A stretch of DNA of 64,000 bases from Bacteroidales bacterium UBA6192. GTDB taxonomy: Bacteria > Bacteroidota > Bacteroidia > Bacteroidales > F082. The stretch covers positions 10,957 through 74,956 of the forward strand of contig DITE01000007.1 in the NCBI GenBank assembly GCA_002422725.1, in the 5' to 3' direction. The notes below the pieces were generated by a model that did no database searches, was not told the origin of the DNA, and worked only from the letters and a program-made list of their open reading frames with translations. Positions 1 to 11,836 of this stretch are shown here, piece by piece. The position numbers and the translations under genes are program-made. Positions within the stretch are counted from its first letter, which is position 1, and every line of letters starts with the position of its first letter.

Positions 1-351
1 TTTTTTTTGCACTTGCCCTCTCTCACTCACAAGTCTTATTGCTTCAGGAAGTTCTTCTGAAAGCCAGTGGTTGAATCCGGTCATCCCAATGGTTTTGGCA
101 ACAAAGGGCTGGGCATTGACTATCAGGAAACTTCCTTTTACCTGATGCAGTTCCTTGCTGATCCGGACCAGTGACCTGATTCCCGCCGAACTCAGAAAAG
201 CCATATCTCGGGCATCGATGATGAGTTGATGGTGGCCGCTGCGGATATGATCGAGCAGGGTGTCGGCGAAATAATCAGACCAGGACGCGTCAAGCCTGCC
301 ATCAACTTTAATAATTAAATAATCGCCAATATTTTCATCTGTCAGTTGCAT
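1..351 (-). CDS. STAS-domain protein (SpoIIAA/RsbV-like anti-sigma-factor antagonist), partial, open to the window edge
   Basis: Hand translation from the ATG at 349-351 (minus) gives MQLTDENIGDYLIIKVDGRLDASWSDYFADTLLDHIRSGHHQLIIDARDMAFLSSAGIRSLVRISKELHQVKGSFLIVNAQPFVAKTIGMTGFNHWL... with no stop before position 1, which is why it is absent from the ORF track. The 'DxxxxxFLSSAGIRSLV' context is STAS-like. It starts 2 nt after the stop of the upstream gene. Confidence 0.7.
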   Translation of the reverse strand, partial: MQLTDENIGDYLIIKVDGRLDASWSDYFADTLLDHIRSGHHQLIIDARDMAFLSSAGIRSLVRISKELHQVKGSFLIVNAQPFVAKTIGMTGFNHWLSEELPEAIRLVSERGQVQKK

Positions 352-353
352 AA

Positions 354-3260
354 TTACTTTTGCTTTTCGTTGGTAAAAACAATGGCTTTTTTCAGAAAAT
401 CCTCCGTAAACAATAGATTGTGTTTTTTTGACAGTTCCGGGTTATAGATCAGTTTTTCTGACTGGGTATTACTAAATGGTATATTAGCCGGGTTTTCGCC
501 CCGAAGCACACGCACAGCTTTTTCGGCCGCTTCGAGTCCGGCATCATAGTAATCCCTCGCCAAACAAACTACTCCTCCTTCGCGCATCTGATCGCTGTCG
601 AAAACATAAACAGGCAGGTTGCTTTCAGCAGCTTTTCGTGCAATAAGTGCAAATCCAGGCCGGGTCATGTTGTCTACTATCTGACAAACCAACTGGATAT
701 CCTGACGGCAAAGCTCAGAAGTTGCCTGGGTGAGATCGGCACTGGAAGTTACCGGAATACTTACCAATCCTATTCCAAGCTTTTCAAGCTCCTGCTTAAA
801 CCAGTCTCTATACAGGACACTGTTGATTTCGGCCGGTGTAAACAATGTACCAACCTTTTTAACCTGGGGAATTGTTTCTTTAATCAGCTTTGCCATTCCA
901 TCAAAAGGCGATCGTGTGGTAATCCCGGTTACATTGGGCAAATGATCTGTTTCGCTCTTGCCGGCTCCTGCCTTAACAGCATCGCCAACACCTGTGAACA
1001 CTATTTTGGTATCCTCACCAGCTTGTCGAAGAGCCGCCTGTAAACTTGGAGTTGAAATAACCATCAGTAAATCAACCCTGTCCGATTTTACTGTTGTCAT
1101 AATGCTCGACAAGGTTGTCATATCGCCCTGGGCATTGAAAACCCTCAAATCATAATCTGTTCCCTCAGTAAGTCCGGCTTTTTTAATTCCATCTATTAAG
1201 CCTTCGTGGCACCGCTCGGCAAACTCAGTATCGCTATAATGAACTATCCTGAGTTTATGTCGTTTCTTCACCGGGCTGAAAGCATTTGATTTCGGCTCAA
1301 TGCGTTGCTGAACTTCAGTTTCCGTAATAGGTAATTGCGAAGGATGTACACCGGCAATAATTTTTGCAGCCAACTTTCCCGATTGTTTGCCCCATTCAAA
1401 AAAACTATCGCCATAAGCACCTGTAGCTCCCTGAGCAACAAGTTGAGGTTCGGTTGCAAAAATCGGAATGTTGGCTGAACTGGCAACCCTTAGGATTGAT
1501 TTGAAGCCTGTTGTAACCAGATTGTCGGCCGACACAATGATGGCTTTTGCACCTCTCTGAATAATGGCCTGAGTTGCCATCGTCAGTTCGGTGACATTGG
1601 TTGCTGTAGCCTCGATTACCTTAATGTTTTTGTATTTTCCGGCGATACGTAGTTTTTCGACAGAAAGAACAGAATTCATCTGAGCAGCATCGTAAACAAT
1701 ACCTACCGCTTTAAGGTCCGGAATATAATCCATTGCCATCTGAAGCAAATCAGCCACTGGTGGATTATCGTGAACACCGCAAACGTTTGACGGGCGGCCA
1801 TGGTTAAACATTTTCAGTTTCACCGGATCGCTGGTTACGGTAAGCACGACAGGTATATCGGTAACCCTGTTTACGACTGCCATCATCACAGGTGTAGTCA
1901 CCGTTACGATTACATCGGGTTTTTCGCGCACAACAGCATCAATAATAGACGATAACTGTCCGATTTCGCCCTGAGCACTGAATTTTTTCATTATATAGTC
2001 CGTGCCTGGCTGCAGGCCACTCCATTGCAGTCCGCTTTCGACTCCCTCAGCGGCTTCTTCAAGTGAGCTGTTCTCGACAAGTGTGATCAGGGACACTTTT
2101 GCAACACCTCCTTTGTAAAGCGCAACATGATGAAATAAATCTGCTTCCCGGATCATTGCTTCTGTTGGCTCAATTCCTTGTTGTTTAAGTTCAGCAAAGT
2201 CAATCGCAACACGATCAACCTCAGTCACTGATTGTTGATCAGCCAACCGGGCCTCAGTAAGCGGGCTCATTTTCCAGCTATTTCCGAGTGACGCCAACAA
2301 TGGCCTGTTCAGGTTCAGTTCTTCGGGGACAACATTTTCGATACGGAATTCGGATGGGCTTTTCCCTTCGAGGATAGCAATAGCGAGATCGGCTGTGTAT
2401 TGTCCAACGGTGAAATAGTTTGCTCCAAGGCCAAAAAGAGCTTCCCTTTCAACATCAGCAGGATCGTTAGTAAAAACCGGTACACCTTTGCTTTTTGCCA
2501 TATTGACGATCATTCCGGATGATGCCGTAGCCACGGTGTCGCCTCCGATCCATATGGCTTCGACCCCTTTGGAAAGCAAGGACCGTGTAGCCTCCGACAC
2601 TTCAGAAGTGTTGGTTGCGATTGCCTCGACCAGCTCTATTCCAAGTTCTTTGCAAATGATGCGGGCTTCGCCCAGGCAAGCTTCGGAGCATTGTTCGCCG
2701 GGATTCCACACAACGCCCACCCTTTTGATTGACGGGTTGAGTTCACGTAGTATTCTGAATGCATTCTGAACGGGCTGAAAAGTACCGATACCAGCCATAT
2801 ACGAAGGGTGCTGGTTCTTATCGGGGCCACTGATGCCTGCCCCGGTTCCGTAAGGATCGGTAACTGCCCCAAAAACATGTAGTTTTCCTGCACTTTGATT
2901 GGCTTTGGAAAAAACCTGCAATGCCACAGTACTCGACGTAATGGCCATTTTATACGGTCCGTTGACAATTTCACGGGCAATGGTGTTTGCCGTACTGAAA
3001 TCGCCTTGTGGATTAAATTGCCGAATGTTGGATCGGTCGGGTGCCACATAATTTTTTGACTGTAAACGGTCTATCACCCCGGCAACATGTGCATCCAGAA
3101 GGGGTGTAGACGAAATCTGCATAATGGCTATTGAAGGATAATCACGCTTTGTTTCTGTTTGCTTGCTTTGTCGCTGTTTCAAATCAGAAAGCAACAATAT
3201 CGCTGAAGTACCGAGTATAAGAACAATTGCCAGCCACAGGTCTTTGATGATGCTCTTCAT
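354..3260 (-). CDS. Membrane-anchored protein with three tandem ABC-transporter substrate-binding-like domains (ABC_sub_bind type)
   Basis: 968-aa ORF. It has one N-terminal hydrophobic helix (LWLAIVLILGTSAILLL) followed by three similar ~290-aa modules, starting near residues 40, 380 and 665. Each module has the same layout: beta-strand run, 'NAQGD/SAQGE/NPQGD', then '...KRVGVVWNP / KAVGIVYD / KKVGTLFTP'. There is no permease or ATPase gene nearby. Confidence 0.6.
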   Translation of the reverse strand: MKSIIKDLWLAIVLILGTSAILLLSDLKQRQSKQTETKRDYPSIAIMQISSTPLLDAHVAGVIDRLQSKNYVAPDRSNIRQFNPQGDFSTANTIAREIVNGPYKMAITSSTVALQVFSKANQSAGKLHVFGAVTDPYGTGAGISGPDKNQHPSYMAGIGTFQPVQNAFRILRELNPSIKRVGVVWNPGEQCSEACLGEARIICKELGIELVEAIATNTSEVSEATRSLLSKGVEAIWIGGDTVATASSGMIVNMAKSKGVPVFTNDPADVEREALFGLGANYFTVGQYTADLAIAILEGKSPSEFRIENVVPEELNLNRPLLASLGNSWKMSPLTEARLADQQSVTEVDRVAIDFAELKQQGIEPTEAMIREADLFHHVALYKGGVAKVSLITLVENSSLEEAAEGVESGLQWSGLQPGTDYIMKKFSAQGEIGQLSSIIDAVVREKPDVIVTVTTPVMMAVVNRVTDIPVVLTVTSDPVKLKMFNHGRPSNVCGVHDNPPVADLLQMAMDYIPDLKAVGIVYDAAQMNSVLSVEKLRIAGKYKNIKVIEATATNVTELTMATQAIIQRGAKAIIVSADNLVTTGFKSILRVASSANIPIFATEPQLVAQGATGAYGDSFFEWGKQSGKLAAKIIAGVHPSQLPITETEVQQRIEPKSNAFSPVKKRHKLRIVHYSDTEFAERCHEGLIDGIKKAGLTEGTDYDLRVFNAQGDMTTLSSIMTTVKSDRVDLLMVISTPSLQAALRQAGEDTKIVFTGVGDAVKAGAGKSETDHLPNVTGITTRSPFDGMAKLIKETIPQVKKVGTLFTPAEINSVLYRDWFKQELEKLGIGLVSIPVTSSADLTQATSELCRQDIQLVCQIVDNMTRPGFALIARKAAESNLPVYVFDSDQMREGGVVCLARDYYDAGLEAAEKAVRVLRGENPANIPFSNTQSEKLIYNPELSKKHNLLFTEDFLKKAIVFTNEKQK

Positions 3261-3326: not shown

Positions 3327-3755
3327 CTATCCCTCCAAAGATTTAGTTAATTCCAACACATTCAAATTGTTGATTCGATGATAGTTCACACCATCCATCA
3401 TTTTTCTCATGAAAAAAATGCCTAGTCCTCCAATTGACCTGTCCTCAGCAGTCAGGGTAACATCGGGATCATCCTGCAAGGTTGGATCAAACTCTTTCCC
3501 ATCATCGATGATCTTAATGATCAGATGACCTCCTGCTTTTTCGAGGGTGATTTCAATCTGATGAACAAGTGAATCGTCGTAAGCGTAATTCACCACATTC
3601 GTAAAAGCCTCTTCAATCACGAGGTTCAGCGTCATGGTGACTGCAAGGGGTATTTCCAGCTCATCGCCCATTTCCTCAAGAAAAAGGCTTATTTTTTCCA
3701 ATTCCTCCAGTTTGTTTTGTAGCCTGAGTGATTTGATATTTTTGTTTTTATCCAT
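3327..3755 (-). CDS. RsbW/SpoIIAB-like anti-sigma regulatory factor (Ser/Thr kinase, HATPase_c_2 type)
   Basis: 142 aa. N-box-like 'EEAFTNVVNYAY', 'IIDDGKEFDP' and 'GGLGIFFMRKMMDGVNY' match the small GHKL anti-sigma kinase layout. Confidence 0.7.
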   Translation of the reverse strand: MDKNKNIKSLRLQNKLEELEKISLFLEEMGDELEIPLAVTMTLNLVIEEAFTNVVNYAYDDSLVHQIEITLEKAGGHLIIKIIDDGKEFDPTLQDDPDVTLTAEDRSIGGLGIFFMRKMMDGVNYHRINNLNVLELTKSLEG

Positions 3756-3844: not shown

Positions 3845-6793
3845 TTAATTTCCTAACAACTTCACCGAAAACATCCATTGTTCCAGAGGGAGAACACTCT
3901 CTTCAAATTTACGCGCATAGCCTGCTGACCAGGTAGTTTTCAGGTATGAAAACAATACCAGTTCCAGGTCGACCTGCATACCGGCATTGAAAACATTTCG
4001 CCGGCTGATCTCATCATCCGGATTAAGCAAGGCATGGGTTCCAAACAAGGATGTTTTTATGTAAGTTGGATACAGCCAGGTAGTCCCGACATTGCGCAAG
4101 CGAATGGGTTTTAAGTTGAGTTCGCCCATGGTTTTGACAAAATTATAGGCTGACAGCGCATCGATGCCAACCCCCGGAAAAGCAAGGATCTTACGGTATT
4201 GATCCGCATGTTGCCAGTCGATATAGTTGTTTCTGAATCCCCCAAAATAGAATGAGGAAAATGAAGACCCTTTTTTGCCAAAGGATTGTCCTACACTGTT
4301 TCTTATCCAAAAACTCGTATTCCTGACAACAGGAACCAAAAATCCAATATGCTGCTCCGAAACCAACGAAGGATAAAGATTTCCATTAGCCAGATAGCTA
4401 TACGCAATCAGGTTCCACAAATATCCTTTTTCATCATCAACACCCCCCAGCGTACGCCTTAATTTTGTGACACCTATATCGGCCGACAAACTCTGAAAAT
4501 TCCTTATCGCTGTGGAAACATTTTGAAACTGAGGCAACACTTCCAGATCACCATAATGGGTTAAACTGAAACCGTAGTTTGTCTTTAACGGAGATTTGAG
4601 TGTAGATGATTTCTTGTAGCCTATGCCTACCGAATAGCCGGCTCTGCTTCGTTTGGTTGGCCCAAAAAGGTCGTAAAAATCGGTCTTGTTATAATTTGCC
4701 TGAAGATTCCATAACCAATAGTCCCATTGCAATTGTCCGTGAAATTTCTGCTTATCGGGAGAGGTACTCCAAGGTGAAGTCCCCAGGAATAAACTCAGAT
4801 TCGATATACCAACCCTGTCGCGCCAATTGAGCCGATAGCCGATCGCAATCGTTTCCTTGTATCCGGTAATATCGGGATAGGCTCCGGTGAGTGACATGTT
4901 TTTAATGGGCACATAGGCGGTTTCTTCGGTTTTTAGTGAATCAATATTCACTTTTGAGGCCGGAGGAAGCGAATAGTCGCCAATATGCGGACTTTTATCA
5001 TAAGCCAGGTTACCCAGGTAATTTATGGAATTGGCTTCGGTGATAACCTTCATGGGAATCACCCCGGGCCACATGCCATTTCGATAAAATTTGAGCACAA
5101 ACAAGGAGTCTTCACCAATTTGCTGTGGCATAAAAAGTCCGCTTTCGTCGTTAGAGAGCAATTCAAACGACTTATCTTCAAAGGAAAAACGCCAGATATT
5201 GGAAACCCCGGTATAGTATGAAATCCCCATCAGGAATCGGTCGTCTTGCGAAAAACGGAATTGTGTCAAGGTGTTGTCTTCTAACTTTATAAGCGTTTCA
5301 AATTCCTTGACGCCTATTTCCAGATCGGCCAGTTTAAAAAGAATAAGCGATTGTTCGCCACGTATACCTGTGAGGGAGGCTGTTAACTTAGTACCATCAT
5401 TGGAAATGGAAAGGTCGAGCATCGATCTGCCAAAATCGGTGGTATACATTGGAATGATTTCGGTGTAAGGTTCCGGAATCTTGACCAGCGTAGCATATCC
5501 ATTGTCATGTTTCACTCCCCAAATACTCCGGTCAACCGGGTTGAAGGTAAGATTGCCGGTGCGCGAAAGCGGAATGAGGGTTTCTTTCTTCCCGGATGAA
5601 ACATCAATTTTCACCAAACTCCGATATTTTCCATTCTGTTCGGTGATGAAAATTTGTTGATTGTGAGGATCATATGCAAGGTAAGTAACCGAATACAGCA
5701 TAGGGGAATCAAGTACGGCTATTTTTTTGAGTTTGCCCGTGCGGAGGTTCAGTTCAGCAATATGTGAAATCTGCCCCGGATGATTGATCGCGGCATACAT
5801 TTTCATCTCCTTTTTATCGAATCCGACGGTTGAAAAACTGCCAAGAGGTTCTGTAGTGAGTGGCCGGAACGATGTCAAAGGAAAATCCTTTACCTTATTG
5901 AGGTTTTGTTGTTGAAAATCTGTTTCAAAATTGATCCATTCGTCCCATGCATGCTGCACATTCTTGCCGAATACTTTCCGAAACTGGGCGGCATAAAAGG
6001 CTTTACTCCCATCGGTGCGATCATAAAGTTCCTTAATCTTCTCGTCTCCATAAGCCTGAGCCAGATAGGTTACAAAGCGTGTTCCATACAGGTAGGCATT
6101 TGCACCCACCTGAAAATCAACTGTCGATCCTTCTGTTTCCAACCCGACCACTGAATACAGCGGATAACCTTCGTTTATTATACTGCGGAAGTACATTTCG
6201 TCGTATGGACCCAATGCTCTTCCCAGTCCTCCCGACGTCCAGGTTTCGAGGTAGCAGGCAATGCCTTCGTGATACCAGCGCGGGGCATACCATCGCGGTG
6301 TGGTAAGATAGCTCCAGAAAGCGGTCGTAGGTACTTTTTCGTCCCGGGCAACTTTACCGAACAAGACTTTACGCCAAAACATATCTGATTTGTTGGGCTT
6401 GTCGGCCAGGGTAATATGGGTAAGCTCGTGGGCAAACAGCCATTGAAAACGTTCACTTGACGGAGTAATGCTAAAGGCAAAATTGAAGGGTGAAACGCCA
6501 AGAATAATCATGTTGTAAGGCATTACAATGGCTCCGCCATGACCATCGTCTTCAAAATCGGTGAGCATCACATACGTCATCTTGTGCGGATAATTCCAAT
6601 GTGCCTTATGGAAATCAAGGGCATTATGGAAGGTACGCGCCACATGAGGCATGAGATAGCTATATCGTTTCCCGAAATAGATCAGTTCCATCTCATCCGT
6701 TTTGAAACGGTTAATTTTTTGGCTAAAAAGAAAGCCTGATGTCCCTATATAAAGAAACACCAGGAATACAAAACGGGTGAAAATGTATGTCAT
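3845..6793 (-). CDS. Large envelope protein: N-terminal HExxH metallopeptidase-like domain, central beta-propeller-like region, C-terminal beta-rich (possible outer-membrane barrel) region
   Basis: 982 aa with an N-terminal signal/anchor. 'LFAHELTHITL' is a HExxH motif and 'WYHEGIACYLE' lies downstream. The middle region has TolB/WD40-like strand repeats. The C-terminal ~350 aa is rich in alternating aromatic/Gly strands and ends '...MFSVKLLGN'. Confidence 0.45.
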   Translation of the reverse strand: MTYIFTRFVFLVFLYIGTSGFLFSQKINRFKTDEMELIYFGKRYSYLMPHVARTFHNALDFHKAHWNYPHKMTYVMLTDFEDDGHGGAIVMPYNMIILGVSPFNFAFSITPSSERFQWLFAHELTHITLADKPNKSDMFWRKVLFGKVARDEKVPTTAFWSYLTTPRWYAPRWYHEGIACYLETWTSGGLGRALGPYDEMYFRSIINEGYPLYSVVGLETEGSTVDFQVGANAYLYGTRFVTYLAQAYGDEKIKELYDRTDGSKAFYAAQFRKVFGKNVQHAWDEWINFETDFQQQNLNKVKDFPLTSFRPLTTEPLGSFSTVGFDKKEMKMYAAINHPGQISHIAELNLRTGKLKKIAVLDSPMLYSVTYLAYDPHNQQIFITEQNGKYRSLVKIDVSSGKKETLIPLSRTGNLTFNPVDRSIWGVKHDNGYATLVKIPEPYTEIIPMYTTDFGRSMLDLSISNDGTKLTASLTGIRGEQSLILFKLADLEIGVKEFETLIKLEDNTLTQFRFSQDDRFLMGISYYTGVSNIWRFSFEDKSFELLSNDESGLFMPQQIGEDSLFVLKFYRNGMWPGVIPMKVITEANSINYLGNLAYDKSPHIGDYSLPPASKVNIDSLKTEETAYVPIKNMSLTGAYPDITGYKETIAIGYRLNWRDRVGISNLSLFLGTSPWSTSPDKQKFHGQLQWDYWLWNLQANYNKTDFYDLFGPTKRSRAGYSVGIGYKKSSTLKSPLKTNYGFSLTHYGDLEVLPQFQNVSTAIRNFQSLSADIGVTKLRRTLGGVDDEKGYLWNLIAYSYLANGNLYPSLVSEQHIGFLVPVVRNTSFWIRNSVGQSFGKKGSSFSSFYFGGFRNNYIDWQHADQYRKILAFPGVGIDALSAYNFVKTMGELNLKPIRLRNVGTTWLYPTYIKTSLFGTHALLNPDDEISRRNVFNAGMQVDLELVLFSYLKTTWSAGYARKFEESVLPLEQWMFSVKLLGN

Positions 6794-6900
6794 CTGCTAT
6801 GTTTTTTTACCAAGAATGCATAAAAGAAATTGTATGTTACTTTAATATTTCTTTACATAAAATTCTCAAGCGAATTCACCGGAAGGGTGTTGTCGCCTGC

Positions 6901-7920
6901 TCACCAACTTCGCAATTGCTCGCTATCGGTAAAGCCTGTTCTTAAATTCTCCATGTCACCAAAATAAAGACCTAGTCTGGCTTCATTCATAAAGTCATTT
7001 AACACTTCATGATCGCTAAGGTCTGGAATATTCAATATGGTTTCTGATCCACCCATGAACTCTGATAAAAGCCGACTATTGATTGCTTGCAGTCTTTCCA
7101 CATCCAAAAATATGACTGTATTTAGCCTTTCTGAATCAACAATTATTGGAAACTCAATTCCAAGTGTTACGGTCTCTAAGGAAAGCTGATCCCTGAAGGC
7201 TGATTTTAATTGCATTTCGGCAACCAATTCTTTCATTCCTTCTTGCTCGTTCTTGAGTTTCTTTTTGTCGAGATAACTCAATACGGGTTTGTTCTGGGAC
7301 AGAATTGCAGATTGCATGATGTTTAATGCCAGGATATCATGGGCATCTTCCAGTTCGGGATACTGAACGTCAGGGTTTGCCTCAGTGAAGGTAGCAATGG
7401 CATTCATATAACTCATGAGGATGTCATCGTGGTTGCGGATTCGGGCAATGGCATTCTGAGCCTGATTGAGATAGGTAATCACCGGAACATTTTCGTTACT
7501 GTCGAGTGAAACAACCAGGTTAAGGGCATACAACACGTCCTTTCGTGCTGTTTCGAGGTAAACCTTGAAACTGTTCAATGCATTGTAATATGGATGGTAA
7601 ATCTTATCAAACTCCTCCACTTTAATGGTTCTGCTAAGCACCATATCCACATCAGAGGCGTTTTTAATCGACAGGTAGTAATAATACAGCAGATACTTTT
7701 CATACTGAGCACGCTTCACGGTGTCTTCAACAAGTTCGTTTCGCAGCAATATGTCGTCCTCCGTGATTTTTACATTCCGGAAACGGTCAACTTTACCGAT
7801 TGATCCTGCCAGATCCTCATTGCTTGTTTTCGGAATATCAACAAATAGGGCAATAAGAACACCAATGATCAGGCTAAGTACTGCTAAGAGTACCGTCTGC
7901 AATACAGTGAATTTTTTCAT
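6901..7920 (-). CDS. Membrane-anchored protein of unknown function, paralog B
   Basis: 339 aa with an N-terminal TM helix. The first ~225 residues are near-identical to the 7977-8996 product. The C-terminal third diverges and carries SERL/VERLQ/MENLR/SEQLR motifs. Confidence 0.6.
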   Translation of the reverse strand: MKKFTVLQTVLLAVLSLIIGVLIALFVDIPKTSNEDLAGSIGKVDRFRNVKITEDDILLRNELVEDTVKRAQYEKYLLYYYYLSIKNASDVDMVLSRTIKVEEFDKIYHPYYNALNSFKVYLETARKDVLYALNLVVSLDSNENVPVITYLNQAQNAIARIRNHDDILMSYMNAIATFTEANPDVQYPELEDAHDILALNIMQSAILSQNKPVLSYLDKKKLKNEQEGMKELVAEMQLKSAFRDQLSLETVTLGIEFPIIVDSERLNTVIFLDVERLQAINSRLLSEFMGGSETILNIPDLSDHEVLNDFMNEARLGLYFGDMENLRTGFTDSEQLRSW

Positions 7921-7976
7921 TGTTTAAAGGGATAAGTTTAAAACTATATAAAGTTGTTCCTTAAAGTGAAGTGGAT

Positions 7977-8996
7977 CTACCTTAGATTCTCACTACTGTT
8001 AAAAAAAGAGCCAATTTGCTCCATGTCAGATACGAAAAAACCTAGTCCTTTGGTTTCGCTCATAAATGCCTGAAGTTGTTCCTGATTGCTAAGGTTCGAC
8101 ATGTTTTGCAAGGCTTCTGATCCCAAAAATGCAATTGAATTGAATTGCTCCATATTATTTAACACAAAACCCTGCAATTGCTCCATGTTGCGCACAATTA
8201 AACTTGCCCCCAGCAATTGTTCATTATTTACCAGGGCGAGTCTTTCAGCATCAAAGGCAAACTGATCCATCATCGCATCATTCAGATTATTTTCAGAAGC
8301 AAGCTGCTTGATTTCTTCCTTCCCGTTCATCAGTTTCTTCTTGTCCAGATAATTCAATACAGGTTTGTTCTGGGACAGAATGGCTGACTGCATGATGTTC
8401 AATGCCAGGATATCGTGGGCATCTTGCAGTGCAGGATATTGAACACCCGGGTTTGCCTCAATAAAGGTGGCAATGGCATCCATATAATTCATGAGGATGT
8501 CGTCGTGGTTGCGGATTCGGGCAATGGCATTCTGGGCCTGATTGAGATAGGCAATCACCGGAACATTTTCGTTGTCGTCAATTGAAAGAATCAGGTTAAG
8601 GGCAAATAAAATATCGGTACGGGCAGTCCCGAGATACACTTTGAAATTACTCAATGCATCATAATAGGGATGGTAAGATTTATCAAACTCCTCAACGGTA
8701 ATCGTTTTGCTCAGCACAAGTTCCACATCGGAAGTTGTTTTTAAGGACTGATAATAATAATACAGCAGATACTTCTCGTATTGAGCACGTTTGACGGTGT
8801 CATCCGCAAGTTCGTTGCGCAGCAGAATGTCGTCCTCGGTAATTTTAACATTCCGGAAACGGTCAACCTTACCAATTGTTCCGGCAAGATCTTCACCCGA
8901 AGGTGGCTCACTTTTGGTGGCAAAGCCAATGATAAATCCAACCACCAATGAGGCGAAGGCAATGATAATGATTTGGGTTAAGCTTACTTTTTTCAT
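7977..8996 (-). CDS. Membrane-anchored protein of unknown function, paralog A
   Basis: 339 aa and the same architecture as paralog B. The C-terminal third contains repeated NNEQL/NMEQL/NMEQF/NQEQL/DMEQI motifs. Confidence 0.6.
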   Translation of the reverse strand: MKKVSLTQIIIIAFASLVVGFIIGFATKSEPPSGEDLAGTIGKVDRFRNVKITEDDILLRNELADDTVKRAQYEKYLLYYYYQSLKTTSDVELVLSKTITVEEFDKSYHPYYDALSNFKVYLGTARTDILFALNLILSIDDNENVPVIAYLNQAQNAIARIRNHDDILMNYMDAIATFIEANPGVQYPALQDAHDILALNIMQSAILSQNKPVLNYLDKKKLMNGKEEIKQLASENNLNDAMMDQFAFDAERLALVNNEQLLGASLIVRNMEQLQGFVLNNMEQFNSIAFLGSEALQNMSNLSNQEQLQAFMSETKGLGFFVSDMEQIGSFFNSSENLR

Positions 8997-9070
8997 GTTT
9001 GAGAGTTTTATGGGTTTTACTTTGATTTAATTTCTTTCCTTTAATTATAGTTATGCAGACAAAAAGTTGG

Positions 9071-9829
9071 CTATTTTTCCAAAAAAAGTTGTTTCATTGT
9101 CAAAACTGATTGATTTTGTGATGCTTTTATATTTATAGCCTTTTGTTGATCCTGTTTCTTCTCGAGGACAATTTGAAAAGTGGTGATTCCCGATGCAGTA
9201 AAATAAACCGATCCGGGATCAAAACTACTTGAGCGCGCCCCATCGGCAGAAATATAGTCAGCGGTTTTCAGTAAAAAGTCTGATTCATCAAAAGTCACCT
9301 CCAGCAGCACCTCATTTTTAGCATCGATCATGAAATTCAGGTAGTTCAACTGGCCAATCTGATAAGGCACCATCGTGATCATTGCCTGGTTGTTAACATA
9401 TGATAAACCCTGCTTCGGGCTGGCAACCATGCTGCCCGAAAGCAATTCGGTGTTTGGTTTGGAGCTCTCCGCAAAAAAAATCCAGGAAAAGGTAAACCCT
9501 ATTAATATTCCAACAGTCATAATGAATGCAAAGCGCACAGGAGCCGGTCGGTAAAGGCCGCCGAAGGGGTTCTGTAAAGGAGATACTGTGCTGTTGCGCT
9601 GGCTTCCGTTAACAATTTTCTGCATTACTGAACCCGACACATCAATTGACTCTTGTGTCTGCAGCTGTGAATTCAGTTTGTTTTCGATGTCGAGCAAACG
9701 CAAAAATGCTTCGCGCTCTTTGTCGGAAGCATCGAGCATCTTGTTCAGTACTTCCTCCTCATCCGGAGTAATTAATCCGGCGATTTTTGCTCTCTTAAGC
9801 TTATTTAATTTTCTGTTTCTGAACCACAT
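9071..9829 (-). CDS. Putative single-pass anti-sigma factor (non-ZAS)
   Basis: 252 aa, 28 nt downstream of the ECF sigma gene. It has a short charged N-terminal region, one TM helix (FAFIMTVGILIGFTFSWIFF) and a ~125-aa extracytoplasmic domain. No HxxxCxxC motif is present. The call rests mainly on position and topology. Confidence 0.5.
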   Translation of the reverse strand: MWFRNRKLNKLKRAKIAGLITPDEEEVLNKMLDASDKEREAFLRLLDIENKLNSQLQTQESIDVSGSVMQKIVNGSQRNSTVSPLQNPFGGLYRPAPVRFAFIMTVGILIGFTFSWIFFAESSKPNTELLSGSMVASPKQGLSYVNNQAMITMVPYQIGQLNYLNFMIDAKNEVLLEVTFDESDFLLKTADYISADGARSSSFDPGSVYFTASGITTFQIVLEKKQDQQKAINIKASQNQSVLTMKQLFLEK

Positions 9830-9857
9830 GATACAAAATATTTATCTTTAAGGGCAA

Positions 9858-10448
9858 TCAATAATAACCCGATTCCTCCAGTTTCTCCTTCAGTTGCAAA
9901 CGTGCGTCATACAGGCGCGATCTGACTTTTTTCTCCGGAATTTCCAGTGCAAATGCTATCTCTCTGTAAGATAGTTGTTGGTAATATTTCAAAACGACCA
10001 CAGCTTTATATTGATTTTTCAGTTGGTCCACGGCTTTCTTCATCAGGGCATCCGTTTCGGACTTTTGTTCATCTGTTTCAGCCGACATATTGATTAATTG
10101 TTCCATTCCAACATACTTTTTTTTCTTCTTCAGATGATTCAATGCCATATTGATTGCAATCCGGTACAACCAACTAAAAAACCTGTGGGAAAACCGGAAA
10201 GTTGGCAGCGCTTCGTAGGCCTTTACAAAAACAGCCTGAGTCATTTCTTTCGCCTCTTCCCTATCATGCAACATCCGCAGAAAAAGATTGTAAACCGGAA
10301 CCTGATACCTGTTAACCAATATTGCGTAATCATTGACAGATCCATGAATTACCATCCTGATGATGTCATAATCCTCTTCATCCATCGGTTGATTTCTGCT
10401 CTCTTTCTGCAGGGTGTTGTATATGTTATTTTCCTCCGTTTTCACCAA
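9858..10448 (-). CDS. ECF-type RNA polymerase sigma-70 family factor
   Basis: Region-2-like 'YQVPVYNLFLRMLHDREEAKEMTQAVFVKAYEAL' and region-4-like 'LSYREIAFALEIPEKKVRSRLYDARLQLKEKL'. The track start at 10448 is TTG. An in-frame ATG at 10385 would give a more typical 175 aa. Confidence 0.8.
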   Translation of the reverse strand: MVKTEENNIYNTLQKESRNQPMDEEDYDIIRMVIHGSVNDYAILVNRYQVPVYNLFLRMLHDREEAKEMTQAVFVKAYEALPTFRFSHRFFSWLYRIAINMALNHLKKKKKYVGMEQLINMSAETDEQKSETDALMKKAVDQLKNQYKAVVVLKYYQQLSYREIAFALEIPEKKVRSRLYDARLQLKEKLEESGYY

Positions 10449-10485
10449 TTACCATTTAGGTTGTTAAAAGTTGGTTTTCTTCTGA

Positions 10486-11481
10486 TTAATTTTTTAATTG
10501 ATTTAGTTTCCAGATTTCCCGATGTTTCATTCTTACCAGCGGTTGCAATGCCAGTTCTCCAATTTTTCCAATTTGCCTGCGCAGTTGTTTCAATTCTTCG
10601 AGTTTGGCACCAATATCAGGTTCAACAATCAGCGGAAACCCATTCTCCTTTAGCATCATGTTGCGCTTGGCTTTGATGCTAAGTTCCAGATAAACACTGA
10701 TATAATTGTAGAGATCGACTATTGCCTCGGAGCTAAAGTGTTTTCGTAATGACATCAAGTAATCCCCGGCTTTCGTGTGGGCAAATTTACCCTGCTGCAT
10801 CATCCTTAGCAACTCCACTTCATGGCTGAACTCAATTTCGAGCCAATCCTGCAAACTGTTGTTGCTCTTTTGAAAAACAAGCATAAATACGAGTGGTAAC
10901 ACAATAAAAATAAGCGCTGTTTGGATATATGGGTTCAAAAAGAAATGATTGAAACCACTATGCAGTATTATGGCTGTTAAAAAACCCGGGATAACTGCCA
11001 GAATTAAATGCTTATCACGCTGTATGCCATCAATAAGAATGATAGCAAATAAAGCCGTGCAGCCGCCATGCATCAAGGCAGTGCCGAAACCACGAAGTAT
11101 CCAGACTACTAACCCTGGCTGATGACCAAGAGCAAACATATAAAAAACGTTTTCGGCCAGCGCAAAACCTGCTCCTGCGGCAAAACCATAGACAGCTGCA
11201 TCCACTGCAAAGCCAATCTTTTTCCTGCTGATCAGAAAAAATACAATGAGTATTTTGCTCAGTTCTTCGGTAATCGGAGCAAGATAACGGCTGAATGTTG
11301 CAAAACCAATTGTCAGCTGACTGTTCAGCCATGTGTTGAGGTAATATGAAATCAATGCTGAAATCACTCCCCAGAATATGCATAATCCAAGCCTGCTTTT
11401 GCTCACCAGTTTAAAACTGTCGAGCAGAAACAAACCTGTTAAAAACAGTAAAACCGGCAAAATACTGAACACGATATGCAT
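10486..11481 (-). CDS. PrsW-family intramembrane metalloprotease with a C-terminal cytoplasmic extension
   Basis: Polytopic membrane protein with 'ITEELSKILIV' (EExxK), 'GFALAENVFY' and 'ALMHGGCTALFA'. I prefer the ATG at 11481 (MHIVFSILPVLL...) because the longer track ORF (to 11574) overlaps the upstream STAS gene. The last ~130 aa are soluble and of unknown function. Confidence 0.7.
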   Translation of the reverse strand: MHIVFSILPVLLFLTGLFLLDSFKLVSKSRLGLCIFWGVISALISYYLNTWLNSQLTIGFATFSRYLAPITEELSKILIVFFLISRKKIGFAVDAAVYGFAAGAGFALAENVFYMFALGHQPGLVVWILRGFGTALMHGGCTALFAIILIDGIQRDKHLILAVIPGFLTAIILHSGFNHFFLNPYIQTALIFIVLPLVFMLVFQKSNNSLQDWLEIEFSHEVELLRMMQQGKFAHTKAGDYLMSLRKHFSSEAIVDLYNYISVYLELSIKAKRNMMLKENGFPLIVEPDIGAKLEELKQLRRQIGKIGELALQPLVRMKHREIWKLNQLKN

Positions 11482-11509
11482 GATCAGGAAGGCTTTGTGA
11501 TCATGATTG

Positions 11510-11836
11510 TTACTGGGATGCTGACTGCAGGTCAGGATAAATGGCAAATATGCTTGAAAAACCCGAAATATCAAATATTTCGCGAATGGTGGGCTGCAAA
11601 TTGCACAGCCTTAGTTTGCCTGCTGTAGCGGTTAGTTTTTTCTGAGCCATTAAAAACACCCTAAGGCCCGAACTGCTGATGTAATCGAGCTGGCTGCAAT
11701 CGACCACCAAATGGGCATGTTTTTCGGTCAATGGTAAAAGACTGGCTTCAAATTCACCAGCCGTGATGGTGTCGATGCGCCCCTGAACCCCAATAATGGC
11801 CGTGTTGCCTGAAATTGTTACGTTTACTTTCATCAT
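11510..11836 (-). CDS. STAS-domain anti-sigma-factor antagonist (SpoIIAA/RsbV-like)
   Basis: 108 aa. 'VVDCSQLDYISSSGLRVFLMAQKKL' is a typical STAS phosphorylation-loop context. Confidence 0.75.
   Translation of the reverse strand: MMKVNVTISGNTAIIGVQGRIDTITAGEFEASLLPLTEKHAHLVVDCSQLDYISSSGLRVFLMAQKKLTATAGKLRLCNLQPTIREIFDISGFSSIFAIYPDLQSASQ

Follow-up and report, generated by a model that had tools for sequence, protein, structure and literature searches.

The 968-residue open reading frame (ORF) at positions 354..3260 (minus strand) of a 64,000-nucleotide (nt) stretch of the Bacteroidales bacterium UBA6192 genome, hereafter the window, is the membrane-anchored receptor subunit of a four-component ATP-binding cassette (ABC) importer of the PF04392/BPD_transp_2 (TrpXYZ-like) kind. 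It is almost certain that the system is a complete ABC importer, with a 408-amino-acid (aa) STAS fusion protein, here called STAS-X, as a conserved component. Our overall reading, to which we assign a probability of roughly 0.6, is that it is an amino-acid-type importer with a multivalent receptor and a cytoplasmic STAS subunit that can be switched by phosphorylation.

A conserved importer cassette

A preliminary description, made from the window alone, had recognised the ORF, a single N-terminal helix, three modules resembling substrate-binding proteins (SBPs), and the spacing of the kinase and STAS genes on either side, and all of these features proved correct. It had also concluded that the protein has no transporter partner. 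This is an artefact of the window edge, which lies at position 10957 of the 81.9-kb contig DITE01000007.1 (C89; a window coordinate is the C89 coordinate minus 10956). The permease and ATPase genes are missing from the window because its edge cuts the operon, and they adjoin on the contig, 0.9–2.6 kb outside that edge. The genes of the unit are:

3327..3755, minus strand: RsbW/SpoIIAB-type serine kinase, 142 aa (PF13581)
354..3260, minus strand: receptor, 968 aa (ORF call and PF04392)
1..351, minus strand: first 117 codons of STAS-X, the STAS domain; the rest of the gene lies off-window, to C89:10081
C89:9143-10084, same strand as the receptor gene: BPD_transp_2 permease, 313 aa (off-window; Pfam)
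C89:8338-9150, same strand as the receptor gene: ABC ATPase, 270 aa (off-window; Pfam)

The genes run from the kinase through the three-module binding protein and STAS-X to the permease and ATPase, the last two and a half of them lying to the left of the window. A gap of 66 nt separates the end of the kinase gene from the receptor ORF, the ATG of the STAS-X gene lies 2 nt past the TAA stop of the receptor, the start of the permease gene overlaps the end of the STAS-X gene by 4 nt, and the ATPase and permease genes overlap by 8 nt. The full STAS-X gene has 408 codons and is cut by the window edge at codon 117. On the contig, the importer unit is ended by a convergent HlyD-type gene. An inventory of the whole genome returned a single PF04392 protein and a single BPD_transp_2 permease of this type.

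When one genome per species was scanned with the STAS-X alignment, 246 genomes proved to encode a relative, and two STAS-X peptide patterns served to retrieve 80 loci. These loci represent at least five phyla. They are found in Bacteroidota (Bacteroidales, Prolixibacteraceae and Lentimicrobiaceae), in Desulfobacterales (including Desulfobacter vibrioformis DSM 8776), Syntrophales and Desulfuromonas, in Verrucomicrobiae, Lentisphaerae/Victivallales and Kiritimatiellae, and in Marinimicrobia. Wherever there was enough contig, a permease gene was present downstream of STAS-X (77/77 loci), as was an ATPase gene (72/72). A PF04392 gene was called upstream in 71/72 loci, the sole exception being an ORF-calling overlap where the gene is in fact present. 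In all loci examined the STAS-X gene stands between the binding-protein and permease genes, the conserved order being binding protein (1–5 modules), STAS-X, permease, ATPase; the 4-nt overlap of STAS-X and permease genes recurs in loci L002, L003, L086 and L088.

Since the loci were retrieved by STAS-X peptides, these counts describe the neighbours of STAS-X. The converse is covered by six multi-module proteins picked by binding-protein similarity alone, all of which (6/6) are followed by genes for STAS-X (~400–418 aa), a BPD_transp_2 permease (~313 aa) and an ATPase (270 aa); two of the six loci have one or two additional genes between the binding-protein and STAS genes. The preliminary description had itself held that consistent proximity of orthologues to permease and ATPase genes would refute a receptor without a transporter, and such proximity is what both sets of loci display. 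No further STAS-X was found among 120 evenly sampled genomes of the same class; the system is rare and patchily distributed.

Some loci carry additional genes in or near the cassette. At an Opitutaceae locus, alpha/beta-hydrolase and Acetyltransf_18 acetyltransferase genes (L087:10790-12525) are inserted between the binding-protein and STAS-X genes, and in Bacteroidetes HGW-1 a similar acetyltransferase (L003:14320-15180) is encoded just downstream of the cassette. To the left of the window (locus L001), C89:1784-8175 encodes a radical-SAM/SPASM enzyme, a C39-peptidase ABC exporter and an HlyD-type protein, which together resemble an export cluster for a ribosomally synthesised and post-translationally modified peptide and are convergent with the end of the importer operon.

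A receptor built from diverged binding modules

The receptor consists of a hydrophobic N-terminal helix followed by three modules, numbered outward from the membrane:

3186..3239, minus strand: hydrophobic N-terminal helix, residues ~8–25 (Kyte–Doolittle; AlphaFold2, AF2)
2232..3137, minus strand: module M1, residues ~42–343, nearest the membrane (module alignment; match to 3LKV residues 116–289)
1296..2105, minus strand: module M2, residues ~386–655 (best Pfam stretch 388–651; match to 3LKV residues 8–224)
381..1262, minus strand: module M3, residues ~667–960, distal (matches to 6HNI residues 20–299 and 3LFT residues 14–291)

PF04392 (ABC_sub_bind) matches the protein in three stretches, with 446.7 bits against a cut-off of 25.9 bits (E-value 4.6e-134), and a profile search of the genome gave three separate matches of 129–167 bits. 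The AF2 model, with 24 orthologues as input, has a mean predicted local distance difference test score (pLDDT) of 85.9. It shows a helix at residues 2–31, a disordered linker at 29–37 and then three alpha/beta/alpha modules, with low-confidence linkers at 344–349 and 659–665 between them; the predicted template modelling (TM) score of 0.40 is consistent with beads on a string. Foldseek aligned the model to the PDB entries 3LKV, 6HNI and 3LFT with target TM scores of 0.88–0.90 (E about 1e-20), and on both the model and this search the receptor has the class I two-lobe SBP fold.

Residues ~8–25 form the sole Kyte–Doolittle peak above 1.6 in the protein, and a check of the N-terminal sequence found no Cys for a lipobox. 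L14, I15, L22, L23, S25, D26 and R30 are invariant in the 24 orthologues, and the helix is probably an uncleaved signal anchor.

The modules have diverged considerably from one another. Self-BLAST of the full 968-aa receptor recovered the identity match alone, and pairwise BLAST of the cut modules gave ~25% identity with E-values of 1e-24 to 1e-35. Amongst the 24 orthologues the mean column identity is 67%, and each module is conserved.

The whole receptor scores 450 bits against NCBIfam NF041285 (TrpX, a tryptophan-specific equivalog; cut-off 390 bits), a threshold that is passed only because the scores of the three modules add up. The Trp-specific Gln of SP1069 is replaced by Tyr, Phe and Tyr in M1, M2 and M3, respectively. 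PF04392 proteins of solved structure have Trp, Tyr or Phe as ligands (PMC10443332, PMC6816091), and in CD0873 the side-chain preference is determined by Glu-263 and Tyr-279 (PMC6816091). The equivalent positions, assigned from HMMER alignments, are as follows:

M1: D266 (Glu-263) and Y282 (Tyr-279), invariant in 24/24 orthologues
M2: E604 (Glu-263) and F620 (Tyr-279), mostly kept in the 24 orthologues
M3: D888 (Glu-263) and Y904 (Tyr-279), D invariant and Y in 23/24 orthologues

The comparison of pocket residues that the preliminary description had suggested gives D/Y, E/F and D/Y for the three modules. Judged by these two positions per module, all three pockets look amino-acid-type, with an acidic residue toward the distal end of the ligand. 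In our reading, the diverged modules would capture amino-acid-like solutes in the periplasm and hand them to the permease dimer.

The survey of relatives that the same description had called for found the triple architecture in many proteins, with STAS-X, permease and ATPase as its neighbours. Many three-module orthologues of ~965 aa were found by protein search in metagenome-assembled genomes of Bacteroidales type, along with four-module (~1240-aa) and five-module (~1555-aa) relatives in Desulfobacterota, Marinimicrobia and Verrucomicrobiota. The module types stand in fixed order across related loci:

2 modules: M1-M3, 20 loci
3 modules: M1-M2-M3, 29 loci
4 modules: M1-M3-M2-M3, 9 loci
5 modules: M1-M3-M2-M3-M3, 1 locus

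Counted per locus over the 63 loci whose upstream DNA extends for 5 kb or more, arrays of 1, 2, 3, 4 and 5 modules occur in 3, 19, 28, 10 and 2 loci, the remaining locus being the ORF-calling case (L062). In two Desulfuromonas loci the array is spread over two adjacent genes (L067:5097-10001, with 2+3 modules, and L068:5934-10017, with 2+2).

STAS-X and the proposed phospho-switch

The AF2 model of STAS-X (pLDDT 84.7) has two domains. Residues 1–100 are a SpoIIAA/RsbV-type STAS domain, matched by PF01740 (E-value 4e-16) and by Foldseek with target TM scores of 0.72–0.89, and the full 408-aa protein scores 56.8 bits against TIGR00377, above the cut-off of 53.45. Ser55 aligns to the phosphorylated Ser58 of SpoIIAA. 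It is present in 127/127 STAS-X sequences, and since these were retrieved via the C-terminal domain only, its conservation is independent of the retrieval.

Residues ~118–405 form a beta-rich domain of ~290 aa. The only relatives found for it by Foldseek are acetolactate decarboxylases (ALDCs; 6J3D, 1XV2, 4BT2/4BT3 and 5XNE), at E-values of 5e-5 to 1.5e-4 and target TM scores of 0.56–0.62. A Pfam scan of the domain at E ≤ 10 returned nothing, and hhalign of STAS-X against six canonical ALDCs gave a probability of 0.8% in which the matched part was the STAS domain, with no relation at the level of sequence; the link to ALDC is therefore one of fold alone. When the C-terminal domain was searched by itself against 1.84 billion cluster representatives (clusters at 50% identity), 616 matches were obtained at E ≤ 1e-3, nearly all in proteins of 400–430 aa with the domain at ~120–410. 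All eight full-length representatives tested (8/8) have an N-terminal STAS domain, and thus the C-terminal domain appears only in the STAS fusion.

An alignment of the C-terminal domain across the 127 sequences (median identity 30%) reveals a small set of nearly invariant residues. D200, D378, R380 and W396 are present in 127/127, H340 and H374 in 125/127, and H338 and E264 in 124/127, and a metal or ligand site is suggested by this His/Glu/Asp/Arg set. As in ALDC, the HxH pair is found on a beta strand ~76% of the way along the domain. STAS-X departs from the HxH-(10)-H spacing of ALDC: at +11 the column holds Lys, Arg or Asn, and a third conserved His comes only at +34. Asn351, which matches the +11 spacing, was considered as a substitute third zinc ligand and rejected, as the column varies between Lys, Arg and Asn across the family. 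A better-conserved candidate for this role is His374.

Canonical ALDC genes (with HxH...H) occur beside six STAS-X loci of the Planctomycetes–Verrucomicrobia–Chlamydiae (PVC) group or Desulfuromonas (L068:16849-17625, L071:15107-15886, L072:9098-9913, L079:7004-7705, L083:2057-2818 and L084:2046-2816). Three of the six encoded proteins have hydrophobic N-terminal leaders resembling signal peptides, and the L072 gene lies between the five-module binding-protein gene and the STAS-X gene. A literature search found no paper joining ‘STAS domain’ with ‘acetolactate decarboxylase’.

We propose that STAS-X is a cytoplasmic regulatory subunit, stoichiometric with the permease; because of the conserved 4-nt overlap, it may be made in step with the permease. 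It would probably dock on the cytoplasmic face of the transporter, as MlaB does on MlaF, and the ligand of its C-terminal domain would be a metal and/or a small molecule, the latter perhaps the imported solute or a product of it. The adjacent RsbW-type kinase would phosphorylate Ser55 and a SpoIIE-type phosphatase would reverse this, such that uptake would be switched by a partner-switching module, in place of or besides a sigma factor.

Candidate genes for such a switch are present in this genome. The kinase encoded at 3327..3755 matches PF13581 (HATPase_c_2) with 83.7 bits against a cut-off of 27.4 bits (E-value 1.4e-23); its NCBIfam RsbW/SpoIIAB matches are weak. The N, G1 and G2 boxes are present in the translation (EEAFTN, DDGKEFD and GGLGIFF). 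In the whole-genome inventory it is the one stand-alone RsbW-type kinase, alongside one SpoIIE-type phosphatase (C118:7092-8273) and three STAS proteins, namely STAS-X, a 741-aa protein on C118 and the following:

11510..11836, minus strand: small single-domain STAS protein, 108 aa (ORF call), first in the same co-directional run of genes

Besides STAS-X, the 108-aa protein is a further candidate for the kinase's substrate or partner.

Across the related loci, the gene that directly precedes the first binding-protein gene in the same orientation encodes an RsbW-type kinase domain in 18/67 cases, which fall into two phylum-level groups. The kinase is stand-alone and of 140–170 aa in Bacteroidota and Thermodesulfobacteriota, and in the PVC group is part of dCache-HAMP-SpoIIE-HATPase_c_2 fusions of ~806 aa. 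At least one of kinase, SpoIIE-type phosphatase and small STAS protein is encoded within 10 kb in 19 of the 32 fully flanked loci, and a small STAS gene accompanies 14 of the 32. In genomes without switch genes at the STAS-X locus, RsbW-size kinases were found elsewhere in 5/5 checked, and a genome-wide test for the absence of the kinase therefore does not discriminate.

Some observations weigh against our reading. The STAS domain of STAS-X resembles anti-sigma antagonists rather than MlaB in both sequence and fold searches, and no MlaB chain was found amongst its PDB sequence matches at E ≤ 1 or its top 50 Foldseek matches. In about 40% of the fully flanked loci, no partner-switching gene is nearer than 10 kb, and the invariant His/Glu/Asp/Arg set could mark an enzyme rather than a sensor. 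We put the chance that STAS-X mainly regulates transport via a phospho-switch at slightly less than even. Somewhat more tentative is the specific proposal that the transporter is the output of partner switching, with Ser55 phosphorylation gating the importer and the ALDC-fold domain sensing a ligand or metal that reports the imported solute.

The reverse would be a transceptor that feeds the switch. The importer would bring in the captured signal, the ALDC-like domain of STAS-X would bind it in the cytoplasm, and unphosphorylated STAS-X would sequester the RsbW-type kinase/anti-sigma protein, freeing a sigma factor or other target, such as the extracytoplasmic function (ECF) sigma factor encoded upstream in Bacteroidota. 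The SpoIIAA/RsbV-type STAS domain, with TIGR00377 above its cut-off, agrees with this, as does the presence of the genome's sole RsbW-type kinase at this locus; the logic of sensor–STAS fusions is established for RsbR and YtvA, and the Bacteroidota operon also includes an ECF sigma factor, an anti-sigma-like protein and PrsW. However, an ECF sigma factor normally comes with a membrane anti-sigma factor of its own, and one is present here; ECF sigma factors are not known targets of RsbW, and in most non-Bacteroidota loci there is no sigma gene nearby. The tight coupling of the STAS-X and permease genes suggests a structural subunit. Mildly against a transceptor, the neighbouring phosphatase in PVC-group and Thermodesulfobacteriota loci has its own periplasmic dCache sensor, and the transporter therefore fits better as a target than as a sensor. 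We consider this alternative unlikely, at around one chance in four. It is nevertheless the nearest surviving form of the idea, put forward in the preliminary description, of a multivalent receptor feeding the adjacent signalling genes. The membrane-anchored array of diverged modules and the conserved link to RsbW and STAS proteins have stood, and the receptor without a transporter has not; the link from receptor to signalling runs through STAS-X, which is embedded in the transporter.

It is less likely again that the C-terminal domain of STAS-X is a metal-dependent decarboxylase-like enzyme acting on the incoming solute, with the STAS domain tethering or regulating it. The fold resembles the zinc enzyme acetolactate decarboxylase, three His together with Glu, Asp and Arg are kept in at least 124 of the 127 sequences despite their low median identity, and the canonical ALDC genes beside six loci hint at related chemistry. 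Against this, neither hhalign nor the Pfam scan relates the domain to ALDC by sequence, and the ALDC metal-ligand spacing is not kept. Finally, a purely periplasmic receptor for the adjacent signalling genes, an orphan triple array without a transporter, would accord with the lack of a cytoplasmic domain and with the kinase and STAS genes on either side, but is refuted by the permease and ATPase genes that follow on the same strand just past the window and in every related locus with enough DNA.

Further genes accompany the cassette. In Bacteroidota it is preceded by a string encoding a small STAS protein, a PrsW-like protease, an ECF sigma factor, an anti-sigma-like protein of ~250 aa, 1–3 paralogues of a ~339-aa protein, and a 982-aa protein with weak Peptidase_MA and Omp85 matches:

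3845-11836, minus strand: upstream gene string, found also at loci L007, L031, L060 and L066

The non-Bacteroidota loci L036 and L073 encode PrsW and a homologue of the 982-aa protein downstream of the cassette, along with SpoIIE and a small STAS protein, and the association is therefore wider than one phylum. Eight Bacteroidota loci (L007, L008, L020, L025, L047, L050, L051 and L060) have, just past the end of the cassette and in opposite orientation, a gene for a protein of 730–758 aa (STAS, an APH-like region and TCAD9). Its counterpart in this genome (C118:12584-14809) lies a few kb from the sole SpoIIE-type phosphatase gene. In Verrucomicrobiota and Thermodesulfobacteriota loci, a gene for an NMT1-family (PF09084) binding protein lies directly upstream of the dCache-HAMP-SpoIIE phosphatase gene and downstream of the small STAS gene (L005:4447-5496, L087:3571-4626 and L088:2283-3293); at L088 an RsbW-type kinase gene lies between the small STAS and NMT1-family genes. 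The NMT1-family protein may provide this switch with a further periplasmic input.

Relation to known systems and significance

The closest known systems are the TrpXYZ-type importers, represented by SP1069 (3LFT) of S. pneumoniae, VC_1101 (3LKV) of V. cholerae and CD0873 (6HNI) of C. difficile. They share with the present system the binding-protein family and fold, and the same partners, one BPD_transp_2 permease and one ABC ATPase. Unlike them, the present system has three modules (1–5 in relatives) in one polypeptide anchored by a transmembrane helix, a STAS-X gene between the binding-protein and permease genes, and kinase and phosphatase genes attached.

In diderm hosts, such as this one, free periplasmic binding proteins are the norm. 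Tethering of several binding domains of different specificity beside one translocator is known from GlnPQ (PMC8025302). There, two PF00497-type domains are fused to the permease, whereas here 2–5 PF04392 domains form a separate anchored polypeptide; with PF04392 modules that are not fused to a transmembrane domain, the receptor falls outside the GlnPQ type.

MlaB, the precedent for our reading, is like STAS-X a cytoplasmic STAS protein encoded inside an ABC transporter operon. MlaFEDB needs it both to assemble and to have ATPase activity (PMC5016091, PMC7367683), and mutation of Thr52, equivalent to the phospho-site, abolishes activity (PMC5016091; see also PMC7367683). MlaB is a single domain of ~10 kDa, belongs to an MCE-type lipid transporter and has no known cognate kinase. 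STAS-X, in contrast, has 408 aa and an extra ALDC-fold domain, belongs to a binding-protein-dependent importer and is often encoded beside RsbW-type kinases and SpoIIE-type phosphatases. As kinship to MlaB was found in neither sequence nor fold, we suggest that STAS-X may work like MlaB, and do not file it as a member of that group.

With the RsbV/RsbW/RsbU and SpoIIAA/SpoIIAB/SpoIIE systems, the present one has in common a phosphorylatable STAS domain, an RsbW-type kinase and a PP2C (SpoIIE-type) phosphatase, and with RsbR and YtvA the fusion of STAS to a sensing domain, here putative. Unlike in these systems, no group-3 sigma factor is in evidence, the STAS domain precedes its partner domain in the chain, and the STAS fusion is encoded in a transporter operon, so that the output may be transport rather than transcription. 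As to alpha-acetolactate decarboxylase (PF03306; 4BT2, 5XNE and 6J3D), the C-terminal domain of STAS-X has the same overall fold and HxH position; it is ~50 residues longer, its third zinc-binding His is not at the ALDC spacing, and it does not match the PF03306 sequence model.

A literature search found no description of this operon. The parts are of known kinds, comprising a PF04392 importer, tandem binding domains, a STAS accessory protein and RsbW/RsbU-type switches, and their combination appears to be undescribed. The new elements are the arrangement of up to five PF04392 modules as an anchored polypeptide of their own, the obligatory STAS fusion protein within a binding-protein-dependent importer, the C-terminal domain without family assignment, and the dedicated kinases.

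Post-translational control of ABC importers is known mainly from regulatory domains of the ATPase, as in MalK, MetN, ModC and OpuA. To our knowledge, MlaB is the one STAS-domain case of ABC-transporter control, and has no known kinase. The four-gene cassette described here occurs in ~250 species-level genomes of anaerobic Bacteroidota, Desulfobacterota, the PVC group and Marinimicrobia, and its STAS-X combines an intact phospho-site with repeated pairing with RsbW-type kinases and sensor phosphatases. With this system, the connection of partner switching to transport would become open to direct test. In addition, the ~290-aa domain of STAS-X represents a family as yet without a name, comprising 616 clusters at 50% identity, and the 1–5 chained modules of the receptor, in fixed order types, bear on how multivalent receptors widen or tune substrate capture.

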